Part shown: piece after piece, positions 44,423 through 53,083 of the stretch
Position numbering within the stretch: position 1 is the stretch's first letter
Layout of the letters: every line of letters starts with the position of its first letter
Source: an uncultured Acidobacteriota bacterium
GTDB lineage: Bacteria > Acidobacteriota > JAQAZP01
DNA: 64,000 nt
Direction: 5' to 3'
Assembly: GCA_963836075.1 (NCBI GenBank)
Contig: CAWIIB010000001.1
Location: 256,001 to 320,000, forward strand
Position numbers and translations under genes: made by a program
Notes under the pieces: generated by a model
Database searches by the model: none
What the model was told of the DNA's origin: nothing
Seen by the model: the letters and a program-made list of their open reading frames with translations, nothing else

Positions 44423-44962
44423 CTACTCGTCTTCCTCCTCAACAGTGAGACGAATCAGCGGATCCCCCATGGCGGCAGCGTCCCCCACCGCCAGTGGAAG
44501 GCTGTGCACCGAGCCGTTCACCGGACTGAGCACCGGATTCTCCATCTTCATCGACTCCAGGATGACCAGCAGGTCTCCGGCGGTCACCCTGTCCCCCACC
44601 GCCACCGGCAGTCCGACCACCTTGCCGGGCATGGGAGAGAGGATGTCCCCCTGTTCATTGATATCGCCGCCGGTGTCTGCGTTCCCCGGCCCTGATGACC
44701 CCTGATCGTCGTCAGCCGGATCGGCCAGGCGGTAGATCCGGCCCCGGTACTGCAGATGAACCTGCCCCGATTCATCCCGGGCCAGGTGGACCAGGTGCGC
44801 GGTTCCGTCGTCGGCCAGCAGGGAAATGGTGTTCGGACCGGCGCGCAGCCAGTCCCCGGCGAGCTGCTCACCCTCCACGGTCAGCGAAAAAACCTGCCCC
44901 GGGCCGGAGTCCAGCCTGAAGTTGTGCATCGTCCCGTCCTGGTCTCGATATTCAAGATCCAT
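44423..44962 (-). CDS. Biotin carboxyl carrier subunit (split MCC alpha C-terminal part)
   Basis: SPMPGKV and the ESMKME biotinyl motif; GGAGG RBS before ATG at 44962. Confidence 0.88.
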   Translation of the reverse strand: MDLEYRDQDGTMHNFRLDSGPGQVFSLTVEGEQLAGDWLRAGPNTISLLADDGTAHLVHLARDESGQVHLQYRGRIYRLADPADDDQGSSGPGNADTGGDINEQGDILSPMPGKVVGLPVAVGDRVTAGDLLVILESMKMENPVLSPVNGSVHSLPLAVGDAAAMGDPLIRLTVEEEDE

Positions 44963-46502
44963 CTGGTCCTCCGTCTGCCCCGTCCGTCTCCACCAGGGGT
45001 ATGGAATCTCCAATTTGCCAGGAACCGCAGAGCTGCCAGGGGGAGGCCAACACCGCGCCACTGCTTGTTCCGGTTGCCGCGGCGGCCGGACGCATCTGCT
45101 CCAGCCCGGCGGCCGCCAGAACCGCGGCGGGAATGGCGCCGTCCCCGCTGCCGGGGATCCAGTCGCCCATGTGGCGCGGTATGAAGTCGGTGTAGGTGTC
45201 CCCGGAAGCAAAAGCCGGGTGGTCGATCACGTCGGCCAGGTAGCCGCAGGTGGTCTGAATGCCCAGCACCACCATGTCACGCAAGGCCCGGCTCATTTTG
45301 TGCCGGGCCTGCTCACGGTCCTCGCCCCAGACGATCAGCTTGGAGAGAATCGGGTCGTAGTCCATGGTGACTTCGAAACCGCTGAAGATGGCGCTGTCGT
45401 TGCGAATTCCCGGCCCCATGGGCTCAAATGCGTACAGAATCCGGCCCGGGGACGGCATGAAGTTGTTGCCGGGGTCCTCGGCATAGATCCGGCACTCGAT
45501 GGCGTGGCCCTTCTGCTGCACATCCTTCTGGGAGATGGTCAGCGGCTCGCCGGCTGCGATGCGGATCTGCCACTGGACCAGGTCCACGCCGGTGACCAGT
45601 TCGGTAATCGGGTGCTCCACCTGGATGCGGGTGTTCATTTCCAGGAAGTAGAAACTGCCGTCGGTGTCCAGCAGGAATTCAACCGTCCCGGCGTTGGTGT
45701 AGCCCACGGCCTCGGCGGCCTGCACCGCTGCATGGCCCATGGCCTGCCGGACCTCGGGGGTCAGCGCCGTGGACGGTGATTCTTCGACGATTTTCTGGTG
45801 CCGCCTCTGGATCGAGCACTCCCGTTCGCAGAGGTGAATGGTGCGTCCGTGGTGATCGGCCAGCAACTGGATCTCAACGTGCCGGGGCAGCTCGATATAC
45901 TTTTCCAGGAACACGGTGCTATCGCCGAAAGCGTTGCCCGCCTCCCGTTGCGCCGATTCCAGGGACAGGCGCAGGTCGTCCTCGGATGCGGCCACCCGCA
46001 TGCCCTTGCCGCCGCCACCGGCGGCGGCCTTGACCAGCACCGGGTAGCCGATCTTCCTCGCTTCCCGGATGAACTGCTCCTGATCACCGGCCGGCGGCGA
46101 GGCCCCGGGGATCACCGGCACGCCGGAACTGGTCATCAGCTGCCGGGATTCCACCTTGTTGCCCATCAGCCGCATCGCTTCGGCGGGAGGGCCGATAAAG
46201 GTCAGGCCCGCCTCGGTCACCTGCCGGGCGAACTGATGGTTTTCGGCCAGAAATCCGTATCCCGGGTGGATGGCGTCGGCCCCGCACTGCCGGGCCGCGT
46301 CGATAATCGAGTCGATCCTCAGATACGATTCCAGCGGCGAAGCCGGGCCGATACAGAACGCCTCGTCGGCCAACTGCACCGGCAGGCCCAGACGGTCCAC
46401 CTCGGAAAAAACCGCCACTGACGGTACGGAAAGTTCGCGGCAGGCCCGGATGATGCGAACGGCGATCTCTCCACGATTGGCAACCAGTATTTTTTTGAAC
46501 AT
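44952..46502 (-). CDS. Biotin carboxylase subunit (MCC alpha / LiuD-like)
   Basis: ANRGEIA, HPGYGFL.EN, GGGGKGM, ECSIQRRHQK, EMNTRIQVEH. Confidence 0.93.
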   Translation of the reverse strand: MFKKILVANRGEIAVRIIRACRELSVPSVAVFSEVDRLGLPVQLADEAFCIGPASPLESYLRIDSIIDAARQCGADAIHPGYGFLAENHQFARQVTEAGLTFIGPPAEAMRLMGNKVESRQLMTSSGVPVIPGASPPAGDQEQFIREARKIGYPVLVKAAAGGGGKGMRVAASEDDLRLSLESAQREAGNAFGDSTVFLEKYIELPRHVEIQLLADHHGRTIHLCERECSIQRRHQKIVEESPSTALTPEVRQAMGHAAVQAAEAVGYTNAGTVEFLLDTDGSFYFLEMNTRIQVEHPITELVTGVDLVQWQIRIAAGEPLTISQKDVQQKGHAIECRIYAEDPGNNFMPSPGRILYAFEPMGPGIRNDSAIFSGFEVTMDYDPILSKLIVWGEDREQARHKMSRALRDMVVLGIQTTCGYLADVIDHPAFASGDTYTDFIPRHMGDWIPGSGDGAIPAAVLAAAGLEQMRPAAAATGTSSGAVLASPWQLCGSWQIGDSIPLVETDGADGGPDGS

Positions 46503-46507
46503 CCAGA

Positions 46508-47320
46508 TCAGTCTCCGTTATCGTCGGAAATGGACCACGACGGTATTCGACGTTCGAGAAAAGAACTCACGCCCTCCCGGCCCTCGTCGCCGGCGCGCAA
46601 GCCGGCGATAACCCCTGCGGTGTAAGGCCCGGCTTCGTCCAGCGACATCCCGGGCACCTTGTGCAGCAGTTCCTTGCAGGAGGCCATTGCGCGTTTGCCG
46701 TTGGCCAGCAACCGGCGAACCAGGGCGTCCACTGCCTGGTCCAGTTCCAGCGGTGCGGCCACGCGGTGAACCAGCCCCAGCCGCTGGGCCGTGGCCGCGT
46801 CAAAACGGTCGCCGGTGAGGAACAGCTCTCGGCAGGCACTGTCCCCCAAACGCCTGATCACGTATGGTGCGATGCAGGCCGGAGACAGCCCCAGCCGCAC
46901 CTCGCTGAAACCGAACAGGGCGTCGGGGACGGCGATGACGATATCGCACACTGCCACCAGGCCCATCCCTCCGCCGATCACCGGGCCGTGAACCCTGCCC
47001 ACCAGCGGCTGGGGCAGCTGGTACAGCGCCCGCAGACAGCGGGCCAGGCCCATAGCATCCTCGAGGTTCTGCTCTTTGGTGAACCCGGCCATCCTCCGCA
47101 TCCAGTCCAGGTCGGCGCCGGCGCAAAAAGATTTTCCGGCACCGGCCAGCAGCACAACTTTCACCGTCTGGTCTGACGCCAGGCGCTCGGCGGCTTCGGC
47201 GAGTTCGGCCAGCAACCGCTCGTCAAAGGCGTTGTGGATTGCGGGCCGGGACAGGGTCAGCGTGGCCACCGGGCCATCGGTCACCAGAGTGATCCTCGGC
47301 ATTTCTGCAGAACGGGGCAT
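46508..47320 (-). CDS. Enoyl-CoA hydratase, methylglutaconyl-CoA hydratase (LiuC)-like
   Basis: HNAF, FCAGADLDWM, GGGMGL, SEVRLGL, EGREG...FLE.R.P.W; liu context. Confidence 0.85.
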   Translation of the reverse strand: MPRSAEMPRITLVTDGPVATLTLSRPAIHNAFDERLLAELAEAAERLASDQTVKVVLLAGAGKSFCAGADLDWMRRMAGFTKEQNLEDAMGLARCLRALYQLPQPLVGRVHGPVIGGGMGLVAVCDIVIAVPDALFGFSEVRLGLSPACIAPYVIRRLGDSACRELFLTGDRFDAATAQRLGLVHRVAAPLELDQAVDALVRRLLANGKRAMASCKELLHKVPGMSLDEAGPYTAGVIAGLRAGDEGREGVSSFLERRIPSWSISDDNGD

Positions 47321-47347
47321 GATTCCTCGCGGTGTCTGGTTCCGGCC

Positions 47348-48958
47348 CTACATCCGGAAGACGCCGAAATTATGGTCCGGGATCGGCGCGTTGAGCGACA
47401 TGGAGATGGCCAGGGCAAAAGCGGTCCTGGTGTCCAGCGGATCGATGATCCCGTCATCCCACAACCTGGCGCTGGCGTAGTACGCGCTGCCCTCGCGGGC
47501 GTAGCGCTCGAGGATCGGCGCCTTGAACTCCTTCTCCGTCTTCTCGTCCATCAGCGCCTCGCCGGCAGCACGCAACTGATCCTGCTTGATGGTGAACAGC
47601 ACGTCGGCCGCCTGTTCGCCGCCCATCACGGAGATCTTTGCCGTGGGCCACATCCAGAGCAGCCTCGGGAAATATCCGCGGCCGCACATGGCGTAGTTGC
47701 CGGCCCCGTGGGATCCCCCGACGATCAGGGTGAACCGGGGAACCTGGGCGGTGGCCACGGCGTGGACCATCTTGGCCCCGTCCTTGGCGATGCCGCCGTG
47801 CTCGTAGTCCTTGCCGACGATGAAACCGGTGATGTTCTGGAGAAAGATCAGCGGGATCTTGCGCACCGAGCAGAGGCTGACGAAGTGGGCGCCCTTTTGC
47901 GCGCTCTCCGAAAAGAGCACGCCGTTGTTGGCCAGGATGCCCACCGGGTAGCCCATGATGTGGGCGAAGCCGGTGACCAGGGTGGTGCCGTAATTTTCCT
48001 TGAATTCGTGGAAACGGCTGCCGTCCACCAGGCGGGCGATCACTTCGCGCATGTCGAACGGTTTGCGCAGGTCGCGGGGAATGACGCCCAGCAGTTCTTC
48101 GGCGTCGTAATACGGCTCTTCCGGTTCGACGATGTCCTGGAAAGTCTTGGGCTTCCGCGGTATGTTCTGGAAAATGTTTCGTGCCAGCTGCAGCGCGTGC
48201 TCGTCGTCCCGGGCGTAATGGTCGGACACGCCGGAGATGCGGGTGTGCACATCCGCCCCGCCCAGTTCCTCGGGCGTCACATCCATCCCGGTGGCCGCCT
48301 TGACCAGCGGTGGGCCGCCGATGAAAATCGTGCCCTGTTTCCTGACGATGATCGTCTCGTCGCTCATCGCCGGGACGTAGGCGCCGCCGGCGGTGCAGGA
48401 ACCCATGACGATGGAGATCTGCGGGATGGCCAGCGCGGACATCTGGGCCTGGTTGTAGAAGATCCGGCCGAAGTGGTCCTTGTCCGGAAAGACCTCCTCC
48501 TGCAGGGGCAGGAATACCCCACCGGAGTCAACGAGGTAGACGCAGGGCAGGTGGTTGTTCAGGGCAATTTCCTGGGCCCTGGCGTGTTTCTTGATCGAGA
48601 TGGGATAGTAGGAGCCGCCCTTCACCGTCGGATCGTTGGCCACCACCAGAACTTCCTGGCCGTGAACCGTGCCCACGCCAGTGATCACGCCTGCGGCGGA
48701 GGCCTCCTTGTCGTAGAGGTCATAGGCGGCGAACTGGCTGAACTCGAGAAAGGGGCTGTTGCGATCGAGAAGCTTCTCGATACGCTCACGTGCGGAGAGC
48801 TTGCCCCGGGCCTTCTGCCGCTCCCGCGCTTTCGGCGGACCTCCCGCCTTGATCACCGCCTGCCGCTGCTTGAACTCGGCGAGCTGCTTTTGGTAATGGG
48901 CCTTGTTATCCTTGAACTCGCTGGAACTGGTGTCGATCTTTGATTCGATTCGATACAT
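47348..48958 (-). CDS. Methylcrotonyl-CoA carboxylase beta (carboxyltransferase, LiuB-like)
   Basis: [44 protein letters not shown]. Confidence 0.92.
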
Positions 48959-49035
48959 GGCTCGCTTTCAGGCGTCCGGAGTTGTATGGCCGTTCACCCG
49001 CGGCCACCAGGGAGCGGCCGCGGGCTGCGCGGGGA

Positions 49036-49428
49036 TCAGACCGGCACCCCCTTGTGTCCGTAGCAGATAATGCCCGCCTCGCCGTCGGCGGAGATCTTGC
49101 GGAACTCCAGCTTCACCCGCTGGCCGATGGCCAGGCCATCCGGGTCGCAGTCCACGATCTGGGCCATCATCCGTCCGCCGCCCTCGGTTTCCACCAGGCC
49201 GACGGCATAGGGCGCCTGGTCCACAAAGCGGCTGGGGGCCACGCGGATCACGGTGAAGGTGAGCAGTTTTCCTTCCAGGGGCAGGTTGACCTTCTCGAAG
49301 GTACGGCACTGGCATGCCGGGCAGATCAACCGCGGGGGATAGCAGATCTTGCCGCAGGCGGTACACTTGCCAGCTTCGAGACGGTAGAACTGCGGTCGCT
49401 CTCTCCAGTAGGCCGGCTGACTCTTCAT
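49036..49428 (-). CDS. DUF35 Zn-ribbon/OB-fold protein
   Basis: CTACG...PPR..CPAC followed by an OB fold; abuts the thiolase stop. Confidence 0.92.
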   Translation of the reverse strand: MKSQPAYWRERPQFYRLEAGKCTACGKICYPPRLICPACQCRTFEKVNLPLEGKLLTFTVIRVAPSRFVDQAPYAVGLVETEGGGRMMAQIVDCDPDGLAIGQRVKLEFRKISADGEAGIICYGHKGVPV

Positions 49429-50592
49429 CTATACACCCTCCAGAATGTGAACCACCGTGCTGCCGCCGCTGCCGCCCATGTTCTGGGCCAGGGCCAGGCG
49501 GGCTCCGGTGATCTGGCGTTCGTCGCATTCGCCGCGCAGTTGCTTGACCAGCTCGACGATCTGGGCCACGCCGGTGGCGCCCACCGGGTGTCCTTTCGAC
49601 TTCAGTCCGCCGCTGGGATTCACCGGAACGGGTCCGCCGATGGCGGTCTGGCCGGAGGCCACGGCCTCGGCACCCTTGCCCCGCTCGAAGTAGCCCAGGG
49701 CCTCGGTAACGCAGATCTCGGCGATGGTGAAGCAGTCATGGACCTCGGTGACCTGAATGTCGGATGGGGTACGACCGGCCATTTTAAAGGCGGCCGCCGC
49801 TGCCCGTTCGGTGGCGCCCAGCCAGGTCAGGTCGTCCCGGGAGTGCAGGGCGATGGTGTCGGTGGAGTGCCCGCTGCCGGTGACCTTCACCGCCGGGGAC
49901 TTCTTCTTCGACAGGTCGCCAACCATGGACATGGGGCAGAGAATGACCGCGGCCGCACCATCGGTGATCGGCGAGCAGTCGAGGATGTGCAGCGGGTCGG
50001 CCACCATCACCGAGTTGATCACCTGCTCCACCGTGACCTTGTGCGGGTACTGGGCGTAGGGGTTGTTCGACCCGTTGAGATGGTTCTTCACCGCCACCGC
50101 GGCCAGCTGCTCGCTGGTGGCGCCGTACTGGTCCATGTACGCCCGGGCGATCATGGCGTAGAGACCGGGGAAGGTGATTCCGTGGTAGCCCTCGTACGTC
50201 TGGTCGGCGGCGGTGGAGAGCGCGTAGGTCGCCTCGTCACCACCGATGTCGGTCATCTTTTCCACACCGCCAACCAGCACCACGTCGCTGATCCCGGAAG
50301 CCACCTCCATCCAGCCCTGCCGAAAAGCGAGCCCGCCGGAAGCGCAGGCCGATTCCACCCGCACCGCGGGCACCGGCCCGAGGCCCAGGTAGTCGGCCAT
50401 CAGCGAGCCCAGGTGCTCCTGGCCGTTGAACAGGCCGCCGGACATGCAGCCGATATACAGGGAGTCAATGCGGTCCACGCCGGCATCGTCGATGGCATTC
50501 AAGGCCGCCTCGACATAGATGTCGCGCAGGGATTTTTCCCAGAGCTCCCCCCATTTCATCATTCCAACACCGATGACGGCAACATCCCTCAT
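49429..50592 (-). CDS. Archaeal-type acetyl-CoA acetyltransferase (thiolase)
   Basis: [34 protein letters not shown]. Confidence 0.9.
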
Positions 50593-50611
50593 CGTTTGGT
50601 TCCCTCCTTGG

Positions 50612-51664
50612 TTATTCGGCCATCCGGATCTTGCCCCGGCACTTGGCGTAGGCCCCGTATTCCAGGTAGCGTTTGTCGTTGTCCAGCATCACCCGGGTTT
50701 TGCCGGTCAGGTCGCGGACCTCGTCGATGCGGTCGGTCACCGTCCAGACAAAGGCATCGCTGCCGGAGCCGGATCCGTAGGAGACCATCAGGATCTTGTC
50801 CCCGGGCTTGGCCACGTCCAGGGTGGCGGTGAGGCCGATGGGGGAGGCGCCGGAATAGGTGTTGCCCAGCCACGGCGAGAGCCAGCCCGGCTCCATCTGC
50901 TCGTCGGTGAAGCCGAGCATCCGGCCCGCCCGCTGGGGAAATTTGCCGTTGGGCTGGTGAAACACCGCGTAGGTGAAATCTTCGGGTTTCATCCCCGACT
51001 TCTCGAGGATGGCATTGGCCGCGCCCAGGGTGTGGCTGAAGTAGGCCGGCTCACCGGTGAACCGCCCGGCATGGCGCGGGTAGTGCATGTACTCGCGGCG
51101 CCAGAAATCGGGGGTATCGGTCATGAACGAGTCGGTGAAGTTGCAGACGGCAACCAGGTCGGTGTTGCCCATGATGAAGGCGGCGGCTCCGGCAGCCGCC
51201 GAGTACTCCAGGGCGTCGCCGGGGGCTCCCTGGGACGTGTCGGCACCGATGCCCAAAGCGTACTTCACCTCGCCGGCCTTGACCAGGCTCATGGCAACGA
51301 ACATCCCTTCCGACCCGGCCTTGCAGGCGAATTCCATGTCGGCGCAGTGGATGCCCGGTGTGGCGCCGAGGGCTTCGGCCACTACGGTGCCGCTGGGCTT
51401 GACCGCGTAGGGGTGTGATTCAGATCCGATGTAGATCGCGCCGATGTCCTGTGGGTCAACGCCGCCCGAGCGTTTGAGCGCTCTCCGGCCGGCCTCCACC
51501 GACATGGAAATCACGTCCTGGTCAGGGGCCGGAACCGATTTCTCGTAGAGCATCAGTCCTTTCTTGTAGCTCGGAGCGTCGGCCCCCCAGACCTTGGCAA
51601 TCTCCTCGACCTTGATACGTTGCCGGGGGATTGATGACCCGTATCCCACAATTCCAACTTCCAT
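50612..51664 (-). CDS. Archaeal-type hydroxymethylglutaryl-CoA synthase
   Basis: [20 protein letters not shown] (catalytic Cys), [23 protein letters not shown]. Confidence 0.93.
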
Positions 51665-51735
51665 CGGATCTCCTCCTTGGGCCGCCGTGGCGGCCGGGCT
51701 CAAACCGGCGGTCTTTGCCCGCCGGCGGATTTCGA

Positions 51736-52878
51736 TCAGTCACTCATCAGGGCGCGTGAAATGACGATGCGCTGGATCTCCGAGGTGCCCTCGTAAATCG
51801 TGGTCACCCGTGCATCGCGGAAAAATCTCTCCACCGGGTATTCGCGGGAATAGCCGTAGGCCCCGAAAATCTGCAGGGCGTTGGAGGTGACGCGGTTTGC
51901 CATTTCAGAACAGAAGAGCTTGGCCATGGACGCTTCCTTGCCGTGTTTTTCCCCGCGGTCCTTGCGCAGGGCGGCGCGGAGCATCAGCAGGTTGCCGGCT
52001 TCAATTTCGGTGGCGGCATCGGCCAGCATGAACTGCACCGCCTGGTGCTGGGCCAGCTGGCGGCCGAAGGTTTCCCGTTCCCGGGAATAGGCCAGCGCCT
52101 CCTCGAAGGCGCCCCGGGCCATGCCGATGCACTGGGCCGCCACTCCGATCCGGGCGCCGTCGAGGGTGGAGAGCGCGATCTTCAGCCCCATGCCCTCTTC
52201 GCCCAGCAGGTTCTCCTGGGGTACGAAGCAGTCCTCGAGGATGATCTCCGTGGTCATGGAGCTCTTCAGTCCCATCTTCTCTTCGGCCTTGCCGAAACGG
52301 AACCCCTTCATCGACGGGTCGAGGATGAACGCCGACAGCCGTTTGGAGCCGGATTCGGGCGCGGTGACCAGCAGCACCACGAAGGCCTGGCCCACCAGCC
52401 CATTGGTCACCCAGGATTTGACCCCGTTACAGGTATAGCCGCCGTCGGTTTTTTCAGCCTTGGCCTGCAGCGCCGAAGCGTCGGAACCGGTGCCCGGCTC
52501 GGTGAGCGCGAACCCGCCGATATAGTTTCCGGCGGCCGACGGTTCAAGATATTTGCGCTTCTGCTCTTCGCTGCCGAAGTTGATCAGCGGCCCGCAAAAG
52601 ACCGAGTTGGTCACGCTGACCGTGATGGCGGTCGAGGGGCAGACCGCGGCCAGTTCCCGGATGGCCAGACACGAACTGACCATGTCCAGCCCTGCGCCGC
52701 TGAAGGTATCCGGGACCATCATGCCCAGCAACCCCAGCTCCCCGAGCTTGTTGATGATCTGGTGCGGGAACTCTCCCTGCGGCTCGTAGTCCTTCACCGC
52801 CGGCGCGATTTCGCTCTGGCCGAAATCACGGACCATCTCCATCACCATTTGCTGTTCTTCGGTCATCTGAAATTCCAC
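51736..52878 (-). CDS. Acyl-CoA dehydrogenase (short/branched chain)
   Basis: FALTEPGTGSD, NGVKSWVTNG, GAYGY, IYEGTSEIQ; GTG start at 52878 after AAGGAGG. Confidence 0.92.
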   Translation of the reverse strand: MEFQMTEEQQMVMEMVRDFGQSEIAPAVKDYEPQGEFPHQIINKLGELGLLGMMVPDTFSGAGLDMVSSCLAIRELAAVCPSTAITVSVTNSVFCGPLINFGSEEQKRKYLEPSAAGNYIGGFALTEPGTGSDASALQAKAEKTDGGYTCNGVKSWVTNGLVGQAFVVLLVTAPESGSKRLSAFILDPSMKGFRFGKAEEKMGLKSSMTTEIILEDCFVPQENLLGEEGMGLKIALSTLDGARIGVAAQCIGMARGAFEEALAYSRERETFGRQLAQHQAVQFMLADAATEIEAGNLLMLRAALRKDRGEKHGKEASMAKLFCSEMANRVTSNALQIFGAYGYSREYPVERFFRDARVTTIYEGTSEIQRIVISRALMSD

Positions 52879-53083
52879 AACCAGTTCCTCCTTCGCCCGG
52901 CGGTGGCAGCGTCGACACCATGAGCGTGATCGTGGGCTGATGTCTCCGGGACCCGGAATCGATCCGGTGCACCGACTACTAAAAGACCGCGGAGGGGGCG
53001 CGGGCCGGTAAAGCACACCGGCTGCACCGCGCCGTCTTTCCGAAGGGTCTCGGCAGGCCGCTGGGCCGCGGGTGATGCGGCGC

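Follow-up and report, generated by a model that had tools for sequence, protein, structure and literature searches.

The window analysed here is a stretch of 64,000 nucleotides (positions 256,001 to 320,000 of contig CAWIIB010000001.1, assembly GCA_963836075.1) from the genome of an uncultured Acidobacteriota bacterium, which is assembled in 10 contigs (6.2 Mb, 64% G+C, 94.7% complete). [quoted passage not shown] Genes were called from a listing of open reading frames (ORFs) and identified with Pfam and NCBIfam profiles and by comparison with solved PDB chains. The interval was exactly filled by eight minus-strand genes, separated in 5' to 3' gene order by 71, 19, 0, 77, 27, 5 and 22 nt, as calculated from the coordinates. 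The initial annotation had described these eight co-oriented and closely packed genes, and its gene list proved right in every particular. Its statement that the cluster contains neither an HMG-CoA lyase (LiuE) nor an HMG-CoA reductase was also confirmed for the eight genes.

Table 1. Genes of the cluster in 5' to 3' order, and terminator-like sites at its borders (positions in the window).
Feature	Position	Strand	Size and assignment
Acyl-CoA dehydrogenase (ACAD)	51736..52878	-	380 aa; Pfam ACAD N, M and C domains
Archaeal-type HMG-CoA synthase (HMGS)	50612..51664	-	350 aa; TIGR00748
SCP2-type acetoacetyl-CoA thiolase	49429..50592	-	387 aa; PRK06064
DUF35 scaffold protein	49036..49428	-	130 aa; zinc ribbon and OB fold
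3-Methylcrotonyl-CoA carboxylase beta (MCCbeta), carboxyltransferase	47348..48958	-	536 aa; Pfam Carboxyl_trans
Crotonase-family hydratase, liuC position	46508..47320	-	270 aa; ECH_1
Biotin carboxylase (BC), part of split MCC alpha	44952..46502	-	516 aa; TIGR00514
BT/biotin carboxyl carrier protein (BCCP), C-terminal part of split MCC alpha	44423..44929	-	168 aa; Biotin_lipoyl
Terminator-like hairpin, upstream, between the IHF-like gene and the ACAD start	52987..53003	-	Consensus scan; possible 5' limit of the transcription unit; weak
Terminator-like hairpin, 44 nt past the BCCP stop codon	44365..44379	-	Consensus scan; possible 3' limit; weak

The HMGS matched the archaeal model TIGR00748 (HMG_CoA_syn_Arc) with 524 bits for a cut-off of 353, and NF003274 with 525 bits, also over the cut-off. 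It was not of the MvaS type, as the bacterial model TIGR01835 gave 98 bits for a cut-off of 360. Its best PDB match (456 bits) was the corresponding chain of the Methanothermococcus thermolithotrophicus complex (6esq/6et9). The stretches around the presumed catalytic Glu, Cys, His and Asn were conserved in the alignment to 6esq, the assignment of particular residues to this tetrad being our assumption. The E-C-H-N tetrad and the HDxF motif of the thiolase are both named in the available text of PMC12960953. The thiolase of the window (PRK06064, 540 bits for a cut-off of 420) carried HDCF, a form of this motif, and ACASG with the catalytic Cys, and its best PDB match was the thiolase of the archaeal complex, 6esq_A (387 bits). 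The DUF35 protein contained the domains OB_ChsH2_C (PF01796, 78 bits) and zf-ChsH2 (PF12172, 26 bits). The three genes were adjacent, the start codon of the DUF35 gene abutting the stop codon of the thiolase gene. The similarity to the archaeal proteins suggests that the three products would form a physical complex with a fused CoA-binding site, as they do in archaea.

The second half of the cluster encoded all the parts of an MCC. MCCbeta (Carboxyl_trans, 514 bits) was close to the solved beta subunits of Pseudomonas aeruginosa (3u9r, 733 bits) and human (724 bits) MCC, and more distant from the beta subunit of geranyl-CoA carboxylase (441 bits) and from glutaconyl-CoA decarboxylase A (171 bits). 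Sodium pumping of the glutaconyl-CoA decarboxylase type was considered and rejected, given this last, low score and the presence of a biotin carboxylase. The BC contained the domains Biotin_carb_N, CPSase_L_D2 and Biotin_carb_C and exceeded the cut-off of TIGR00514 accC (631 bits for 626.5). In the small last protein, a Biotin_lipoyl domain (59 bits) was found together with an MKM biotinylation motif in the translation, and residues 8-161 aligned to residues 575-727 of human propionyl-CoA carboxylase (PCC) alpha, which comprise the pre-biotinyl region and the biotinyl domain. We take the pre-biotinyl stretch to be the BT domain. It follows that the alpha subunit is split on two ORFs, within the presumed BT domain, and that BC, BT and BCCP are all encoded. 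The same split was kept across phyla: in 29 of the 80 related loci described below, the BCCP is encoded by an ORF of its own, about 173 aa long. The crotonase (ECH_1, 163 bits) gave its best NCBIfam matches, both below the cut-off, with PRK07468 (269 bits) and gamma-carboxygeranoyl-CoA hydratase (231 bits). Among solved chains it matched 3i47 (199 bits), the AtuE-like 4zu2 (129 bits) and LiuC of Myxococcus xanthus (5jbx, 104 bits). It is presumed to be the 3-methylglutaconyl-CoA hydratase, a substrate deduced from gene position only.

The ACAD belongs to the short-chain or butyryl-CoA dehydrogenase type and not to the isovaleryl-CoA dehydrogenase (IVD) type of LiuA, judging from the sequence comparisons. 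It was closest to Bcd and short-chain ACAD chains (4l1f, 395 bits; 5ol2, 372 bits), whereas IVD chains gave 229-252 bits, and it kept the YEGTSE stretch, whose Glu is presumably lacking in enzymes of the IVD type. Copies of 88-90% identity upstream of HMGS were confined to the same genus, and a different ACAD preceded the module in six other loci. The gene is therefore conserved in this genus only and does not belong to the conserved operon. Elsewhere in the genome, two ACAD paralogues (C1:358719-359774 and C9:425682-426755) lacked the Glu (YGGPSE and GGGTSE) and are candidates for the missing isovaleryl-CoA dehydrogenase.

A scan with one genome per species provided 592 relatives, and the following counts of loci refer to the best 80 of these 592. 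Phylum labels are those of the record titles, which may be unreliable for metagenome-assembled genomes (MAGs). An MCCbeta of at least 60% identity was located on the same strand and no more than 700 nt after DUF35 in 32 of the 80 loci, and elsewhere within the locus in 12 more, two of these divergently oriented. The order HMGS-thiolase-DUF35-MCCbeta-crotonase-BC was shared by 44 of the 80 loci under about ten phylum labels, including Zixibacteria, Ignavibacteria, Acidobacteriota, Gemmatimonadota, Eisenbacteria, Aminicenantes, Coatesbacteria and Planctomycetales. A variant carboxyltransferase took the place of MCCbeta in three loci. The remaining 33 loci had no MCCbeta; in 17 of them the sequence continues downstream for less than 3 kb, and in 14 for at least 4.8 kb. 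Among ten relatives of the same phylum with an HMGS ortholog, four had MCCbeta directly downstream, two the variant (crotonase and BC together with another carboxyltransferase, 33-34% identical), and four the three-gene module alone. The survey of operon conservation proposed in the initial annotation thus showed the two halves of the cluster to be strongly co-conserved across phyla. Searches of the accessible literature returned no description of such an operon and no paper pairing DUF35 with methylcrotonyl-CoA carboxylase; those directed at Zixibacteria and Ignavibacterium gave nothing relevant among the matches listed.

As MCCbeta directly follows the module in 32 loci and is found elsewhere in the locus in 12 others, the arrangement is far beyond chance. 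It would be extremely improbable that two unrelated modules merely lie side by side without a shared pathway. Such a juxtaposition would fit the variation of the ACAD between lineages and the 14 loci where at least 4.8 kb of sequence follows the module and no link to MCC is seen. Against it stand the 32 loci of many phylum labels in which order and strand are unchanged and gaps do not exceed 700 nt, the metabolite HMG-CoA which both halves share, and the lack, in most carriers, of both other known HMG-CoA enzymes.

Several loci departed from the common order. In L025, L026, L069 and L105, the order HMGS-thiolase-DUF35-crotonase-BC was followed by a carboxyltransferase 33-35% identical to MCCbeta, which matched the mmdA family with 278 bits, below the cut-off. 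Extra ORFs separated HMGS from the thiolase in L035, L036, L055, L037, L040, L053, L057 and L077, including a recurring ORF of 131 aa and, in L035, one of 819 aa. The module of L035 was preceded by a complete row of genes for EtfA, HdrA, MvhD, a cob(I)alamin adenosyltransferase, MeaB, the large and small subunits of an acyl-CoA mutase, and an ACAD. Most of this row was also present upstream of HMGS in L033, L036, L055, L059 and L062. It hints at an anaerobic oxidation of branched-chain acyl-CoA with electron handling by Etf and Hdr. In other loci, genes for thiolase II and 3-hydroxybutyryl-CoA dehydrogenase were found downstream.

The known consumers of HMG-CoA were sought in fifty genomes bearing the module, of which 35 had the operon and 2 the variant, the module being unlinked in the other 13, using profile PF00368 for the reductase and NF004283, with a cut-off of 246, for the lyase. 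A reductase was found in 14 of them, with 12 strong matches. Among the 35 operon genomes, seven had a strong match and two a weak one, and 26 had no match at all. DXR was present in 46 of the 50 genomes, and three of the four without it had a reductase. A lyase over the cut-off was detected in two genomes only, both among the 13 with an unlinked module, and in none of the 35 operon genomes. One of the latter, G052, contained two lyase fragments below the cut-off at contig ends, probably a single broken gene. Neither consumer was found in 25-27 of the 35 operon genomes. Six records were titled as chromosomes: L066, L079, L096 and L097 had no reductase, L098 only a 52-bit match, and L041 a reductase; none of the six had a lyase and all had DXR. 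An MCCbeta ortholog was present elsewhere in seven of the 13 genomes whose module is unlinked. In one of the seven, G085, a canonical lyase was located 3 kb from it, the arrangement of a classical liu cluster.

The relation between lyase and module was examined in 151 Acidobacteriota genomes, each at least 90% complete, which include the unpublished genome G025 and are related to each other, hence not independent. Here an ortholog of MCCbeta was defined by at least 61% identity, a neighbour by a distance within 10 kb, and a high-scoring lyase by at least 340 bits. The module was present in 32 genomes and the reductase in 25, the two occurring together only in the genome of the window and in G002, of the same genus. 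An MCCbeta ortholog was found in 53 genomes and a lyase-family match over the cut-off in 61. In the 53 genomes with MCCbeta, its neighbour was a lyase in 21 and the module in 11 (a twelfth genome, G001, is added by locus L022), and never both. All the lyases beside MCCbeta in these 21 genomes belonged to the high-scoring class (343-438 bits), and only one of the 30 genomes with a high-scoring lyase also possessed the module. MCCbeta was 61-76% identical between the operon carriers and the genomes with classical liu clusters including the lyase. Since the module is accompanied by a reductase in 14 of the 50 genomes and in 2 of the 32 Acidobacteriota carriers, and by DXR in 46 of the 50, it is mostly not a mevalonate device.

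In the genome of the window itself no HMG-CoA lyase was found, the best match to NF004283 reaching 20.9 bits. The search for hmgL proposed in the initial annotation thus gave none. The sole match to PF00682 (HMGL-like) was a 610-aa protein resembling OadA/PycB (34.9 bits), and a canonical LeuA was not found by this search. As only one Iso_dh locus was present, the usual leucine biosynthesis was not found in this genome. A search for leuABCD and bkd, also proposed, gave no LeuA and a single Iso_dh locus, and the bkd part is taken up below. No match was obtained to the CoA_trans family (PF01144), so that neither AibA/B nor a succinyl-CoA:acetoacetate transferase (SCOT) is encoded. Six loci for 2-oxoacid:ferredoxin oxidoreductases (OFORs) were counted.

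Mevalonate genes exist in the same genome at scattered positions. An HMG-CoA reductase was located at C1:1171480-1172853 (351 bits). From the reading of translations, a mevalonate-kinase-like gene adjoins a type-2 IDI-like gene at C9:3336407-3338459, and a diphosphomevalonate-decarboxylase-like gene lies beside carotenoid genes at C9:107515-108496. Phytoene synthase- and desaturase-like genes were seen near the latter, at C9:100409-102867. The decarboxylase-like gene was split over two overlapping frames, with the N-terminal part at 108023-108496 and the C-terminal part at 107515-108321, which may be due to a frameshift, an assembly error or a pseudogene. DXR, IspE and IspG were present as well, and IspH (PF02401) was not found in this 94.7%-complete genome, which also has the mevalonate genes. 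The search for reductase, mevalonate kinase and methylerythritol phosphate (MEP) pathway genes was thus positive for the reductase, a kinase-like gene and three MEP genes, and negative for IspH. A lyase elsewhere together with a separate, complete mevalonate operon, the two halves being not co-transcribed or not co-conserved, had been named as speaking against a linked function; no lyase was found, the mevalonate genes exist, scattered and with no single complete operon, and the two halves are co-conserved.

It is unlikely that the operon merely supplies HMG-CoA, in the forward direction only, for mevalonate, with MCC and the hydratase adding leucine carbon and the reductase as sole outlet towards isoprenoids and carotenoids. 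The reductase, the kinase-like and decarboxylase-like genes, the absence of an IspH match, and the fact that the genome has no HMGS besides that of the window (the second match reached just 24 bits) all agree with such a role. Precedents exist, since Trypanosoma brucei sends leucine carbon to sterols only, according to the available text of PMC5993337, and PMC12979851 infers for an archaeon that branched-chain amino acids are channelled into mevalonate. However, 26 of the 35 operon genomes, four closed chromosomes included, and 30 of the 32 Acidobacteriota module carriers have no reductase match, DXR is nearly general in module genomes and accompanied here by IspE and IspG, and the decarboxylase-like gene is split in the assembly. 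The either/or pattern with the lyase would also be left unexplained. The mevalonate hub, one of three options of the initial annotation, is consequently possible in this genus only, where the presence of the reductase and of a single HMGS means that the node can also supply mevalonate from acetyl-CoA or leucine.

We propose that the operon serves a lyase-free catabolism of leucine or isovalerate in which the thiolase/HMGS/DUF35 complex operates in reverse, HMG-CoA also being directed to the reductase in this genus, and we give this reading a probability of about one half. The conserved core consists of HMGS, thiolase, DUF35, MCCbeta, hydratase and split MCC alpha, and would form a closed, lyase-independent line between 3-methylcrotonyl-CoA and acetyl-CoA. 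In the proposed scheme, leucine or isovalerate would be converted to isovaleryl-CoA by a step outside the conserved core, and an acyl-CoA dehydrogenase would produce 3-methylcrotonyl-CoA. MCC would carboxylate the latter to 3-methylglutaconyl-CoA at the expense of ATP, and the crotonase would hydrate this intermediate to HMG-CoA. The complex, working against the archaeal direction, would then convert HMG-CoA and two CoA into three acetyl-CoA without free acetoacetate. The CoA-transferase or ligase step of the lyase route would be saved, a possible advantage for energy-limited anaerobes. Replacement of the lyase by the complex had been one of the options put forward initially, and it is the best fit to the neighbours of MCCbeta (21 against 11, never both) and to the lack of both reductase and lyase in most carriers.

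We infer the direction of the flux, which gene content alone cannot tell. It is suggested by the intact ATP-grasp BC and by the 61-76% identity of MCCbeta to that of classical-liu genomes. The neighbours of the module are catabolic (ACADs, EtfA, HdrA/MvhD, the mutase with MeaB, thiolase II and 3-hydroxybutyryl-CoA dehydrogenase). The absence of an acetoacetate-activating CoA_trans member from the genome of the window, and the presence of MCCbeta beside a canonical lyase in G085, where the module is unlinked, point in the same direction. If leucine synthesis is missing, the carriers must take up leucine, which we also count in favour of catabolism. The reversal has some precedents. Citrate synthase is a comparable condensing and hydrolysing enzyme, which some anaerobes reportedly run in reverse in vivo (Mall 2018, Nunoura 2018). 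Thiolysis of acetoacetyl-CoA is about as exergonic as the reversal of HMGS is endergonic, in approximate values. Thiolysis would therefore offset the reversal, and the channelled overall reaction would be near equilibrium, its direction set by mass action. A DUF35-associated thiolase, BbsAB, is described as reversible and catabolic in the available text of PMC12960953.

Several observations weigh against lyase-free catabolism. We know of no experiment showing any HMGS running backwards in vivo. In T. brucei, the bridge formed by an SCP2-thiolase and HMGS is unidirectional toward HMG-CoA, and leucine carbon reaches sterols only, as stated in the accessible part of PMC5993337; that system has a different type of HMGS and no DUF35. 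No ACAD of the IVD type was seen in or beside the operons, all 16 neighbouring ACADs keeping the Glu of EGTSE. In the genome of the window, the strongest E1 alpha was of the PDH type, and a clear branched-chain keto-acid dehydrogenase was not identified. An MCCbeta ortholog, as defined by 61% identity or more, is missing from 18 of the 32 Acidobacteriota module carriers, and the module must therefore have at least one further context. A protein of the HMGL family that slightly exceeds the lyase cut-off (252-288 bits) is also encoded by six of the 11 operon carriers. In two loci, which were read, it adjoins a family III CoA-transferase and LeuCD-like genes, not liu genes, and it was not counted as LiuE. 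The genomes are for the most part MAGs whose completeness is not stated. Finally, co-occurrence and synteny fit the anabolic direction equally well.

In this opposite direction, three acetyl-CoA would be converted to HMG-CoA, 3-methylglutaconyl-CoA, 3-methylcrotonyl-CoA (by the biotin enzyme in reverse) and isovaleryl-CoA, a route which we regard as quite unlikely. Its products would be iso-branched lipids, and could also be leucine through reductive carboxylation by an OFOR. HMGS would then work in its known, exergonic direction. Iso-C15 lipids are abundant in these phyla, biotin carboxylases can be reversed in vitro, and rumen bacteria make leucine by carboxylation of isovalerate. Canonical LeuA is missing from the genome of the window, with its single Iso_dh locus and its six OFOR loci, and 24 of the 50 genomes with the module lack HMGL-like domains altogether, hence also LeuA. 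The ACADs adjacent to the operons are Bcd-like, a type able to work reductively with Etf. Myxobacteria make isovaleryl-CoA from HMG-CoA by the AIB pathway, according to the available text of PMC5389471. Against the route stands the conservation of a complete ATP-dependent BC, which a decarboxylating enzyme would not need: the known decarboxylases of the family have no BC, and no membrane subunit was encoded nearby. The similarity of MCCbeta to that of classical-liu genomes argues for the same reaction, no AibA/B homologue was found, and the neighbouring genes are catabolic. The isovaleryl-CoA option of the initial annotation is thus disfavoured by the intact ATP-grasp BC and the catabolic neighbours.

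A particular form of the anabolic route, in our opinion very unlikely, makes the operon the leucine and isovaleryl-CoA biosynthesis of LeuA-less bacteria, with MCC reversed. In this form, three acetyl-CoA would lead through HMG-CoA to methylglutaconyl-CoA, and the reversed MCC would recover ATP from its decarboxylation to methylcrotonyl-CoA. A Bcd/Etf-type reductase would then yield isovaleryl-CoA, from which a ferredoxin-dependent 2-oxoacid oxidoreductase and a transaminase would lead through 2-oxoisocaproate to leucine.

Lyase-free catabolism can be compared with five known systems. The gene order of the Pseudomonas liu cluster is liuRABCDE. The present cluster has MCCbeta, hydratase and MCC alpha in the same B-C-D order, and a beta subunit close to that of P. 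aeruginosa; it differs in the absence of LiuE from the genome, the two ORFs for alpha, the ACAD that is not IVD-like, and the archaeal-type module in the place of the lyase. The archaeal channelling complex was reportedly characterized by Vogeli et al. in 2018. The thiolase/HMGS/DUF35 complex of M. thermolithotrophicus (PDB 6ESQ/6ET9) is described in the accessible parts of PMC11522927 and PMC12960953. It resembles the module of the window in the adjacency of the three proteins, the best PDB matches and the catalytic motifs. Unlike the archaeal complex, which feeds HMG-CoA reductase, the module is joined to liuBCD, most of its carriers have the MEP route and no reductase, and the proposed direction is opposite. 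The myxobacterial AIB pathway (MvaS, LiuC, AibA/AibB, AibC) involves the same intermediates from HMG-CoA to 3-methylcrotonyl-CoA (PMC5389471). Here, in contrast, the HMGS is archaeal in type and accompanied by thiolase and DUF35, and an ATP-dependent BC stands where AibA/B would be. The benzoylsuccinyl-CoA thiolase BbsAB also combines DUF35 with an SCP2-type thiolase bearing HDxF (BbsB, 230 bits; BbsA, 38 bits), and is reversible within an anaerobic catabolic pathway according to PMC12960953, but it works without an HMGS and on another substrate. In the shunt from leucine to isoprenoids in T. brucei and in a Calditenuis archaeon (PMC5993337 and PMC12979851), enzymes of leucine catabolism hand HMG-CoA directly over to mevalonate synthesis, as is possible in this genus. 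The organisms with this shunt possess the reductase, whereas most operon carriers do not.

If lyase-free catabolism takes place, a large share of the uncultured bacteria of sediments and soils, among them Zixibacteria, Ignavibacteria, Acidobacteriota, Gemmatimonadota, Eisenbacteria and Aminicenantes going by the labels of the records, degrade leucine without HMG-CoA lyase and save one activation step per leucine. This hypothesis implies that a Claisen-condensing enzyme considered irreversible is reversed within a channelling complex, the second case after citrate synthase. When a bacterial MAG contains an HMGS of the archaeal type, this is routinely taken as a sign of a mevalonate pathway, which in these carriers it mostly is not. 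If the flux is opposite, the operon represents a new route to iso-lipid primers or leucine, and, should the leucine biosynthesis version be true, a new amino-acid pathway across many uncultured phyla.

Other proteins with an HMGL-like domain were noticed during the searches. A DRE-TIM protein of 410-440 aa (PF00682, 130-155 bits) was present in L112-L114, L117, L120-L122 and L124, many genomes with the module having such a protein and no canonical LeuA; it remained below every cut-off for LeuA, homocitrate and citramalate synthases. At L125:5107-10219 and L126:6195-10374, a conserved row of genes encoded an HMGL-family protein slightly above the cut-off for the lyase (280 bits in L125), a family III CoA-transferase and the large and small subunits of a homoaconitase-family enzyme. 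ACAD-like and Iso_dh-like ORFs, named from their first residues only, preceded the row in L125. It may correspond to an unrecognised CoA-dependent pathway of 2-oxoacid chain extension or degradation.

The cluster of the window is flanked by an IHF-beta-like gene and a response regulator. The scan of the region for promoter and terminator consensus sequences, from which the two hairpins of Table 1 are taken, gave nothing significant (11 terminator-like sites for 6.4 +/- 2.7 expected). In the metatranscriptome X20, a contig of 450 nt with two mismatches (49231-49680) bridged the junction of thiolase and DUF35, with possible DNA carry-over, and no contig bridged DUF35 and MCCbeta. Parts of the stretch were detected in 20 sequencing runs, the DNA runs, from soil, freshwater sediment, salt marsh and marine sediment, containing 20-50% of its sampled words.

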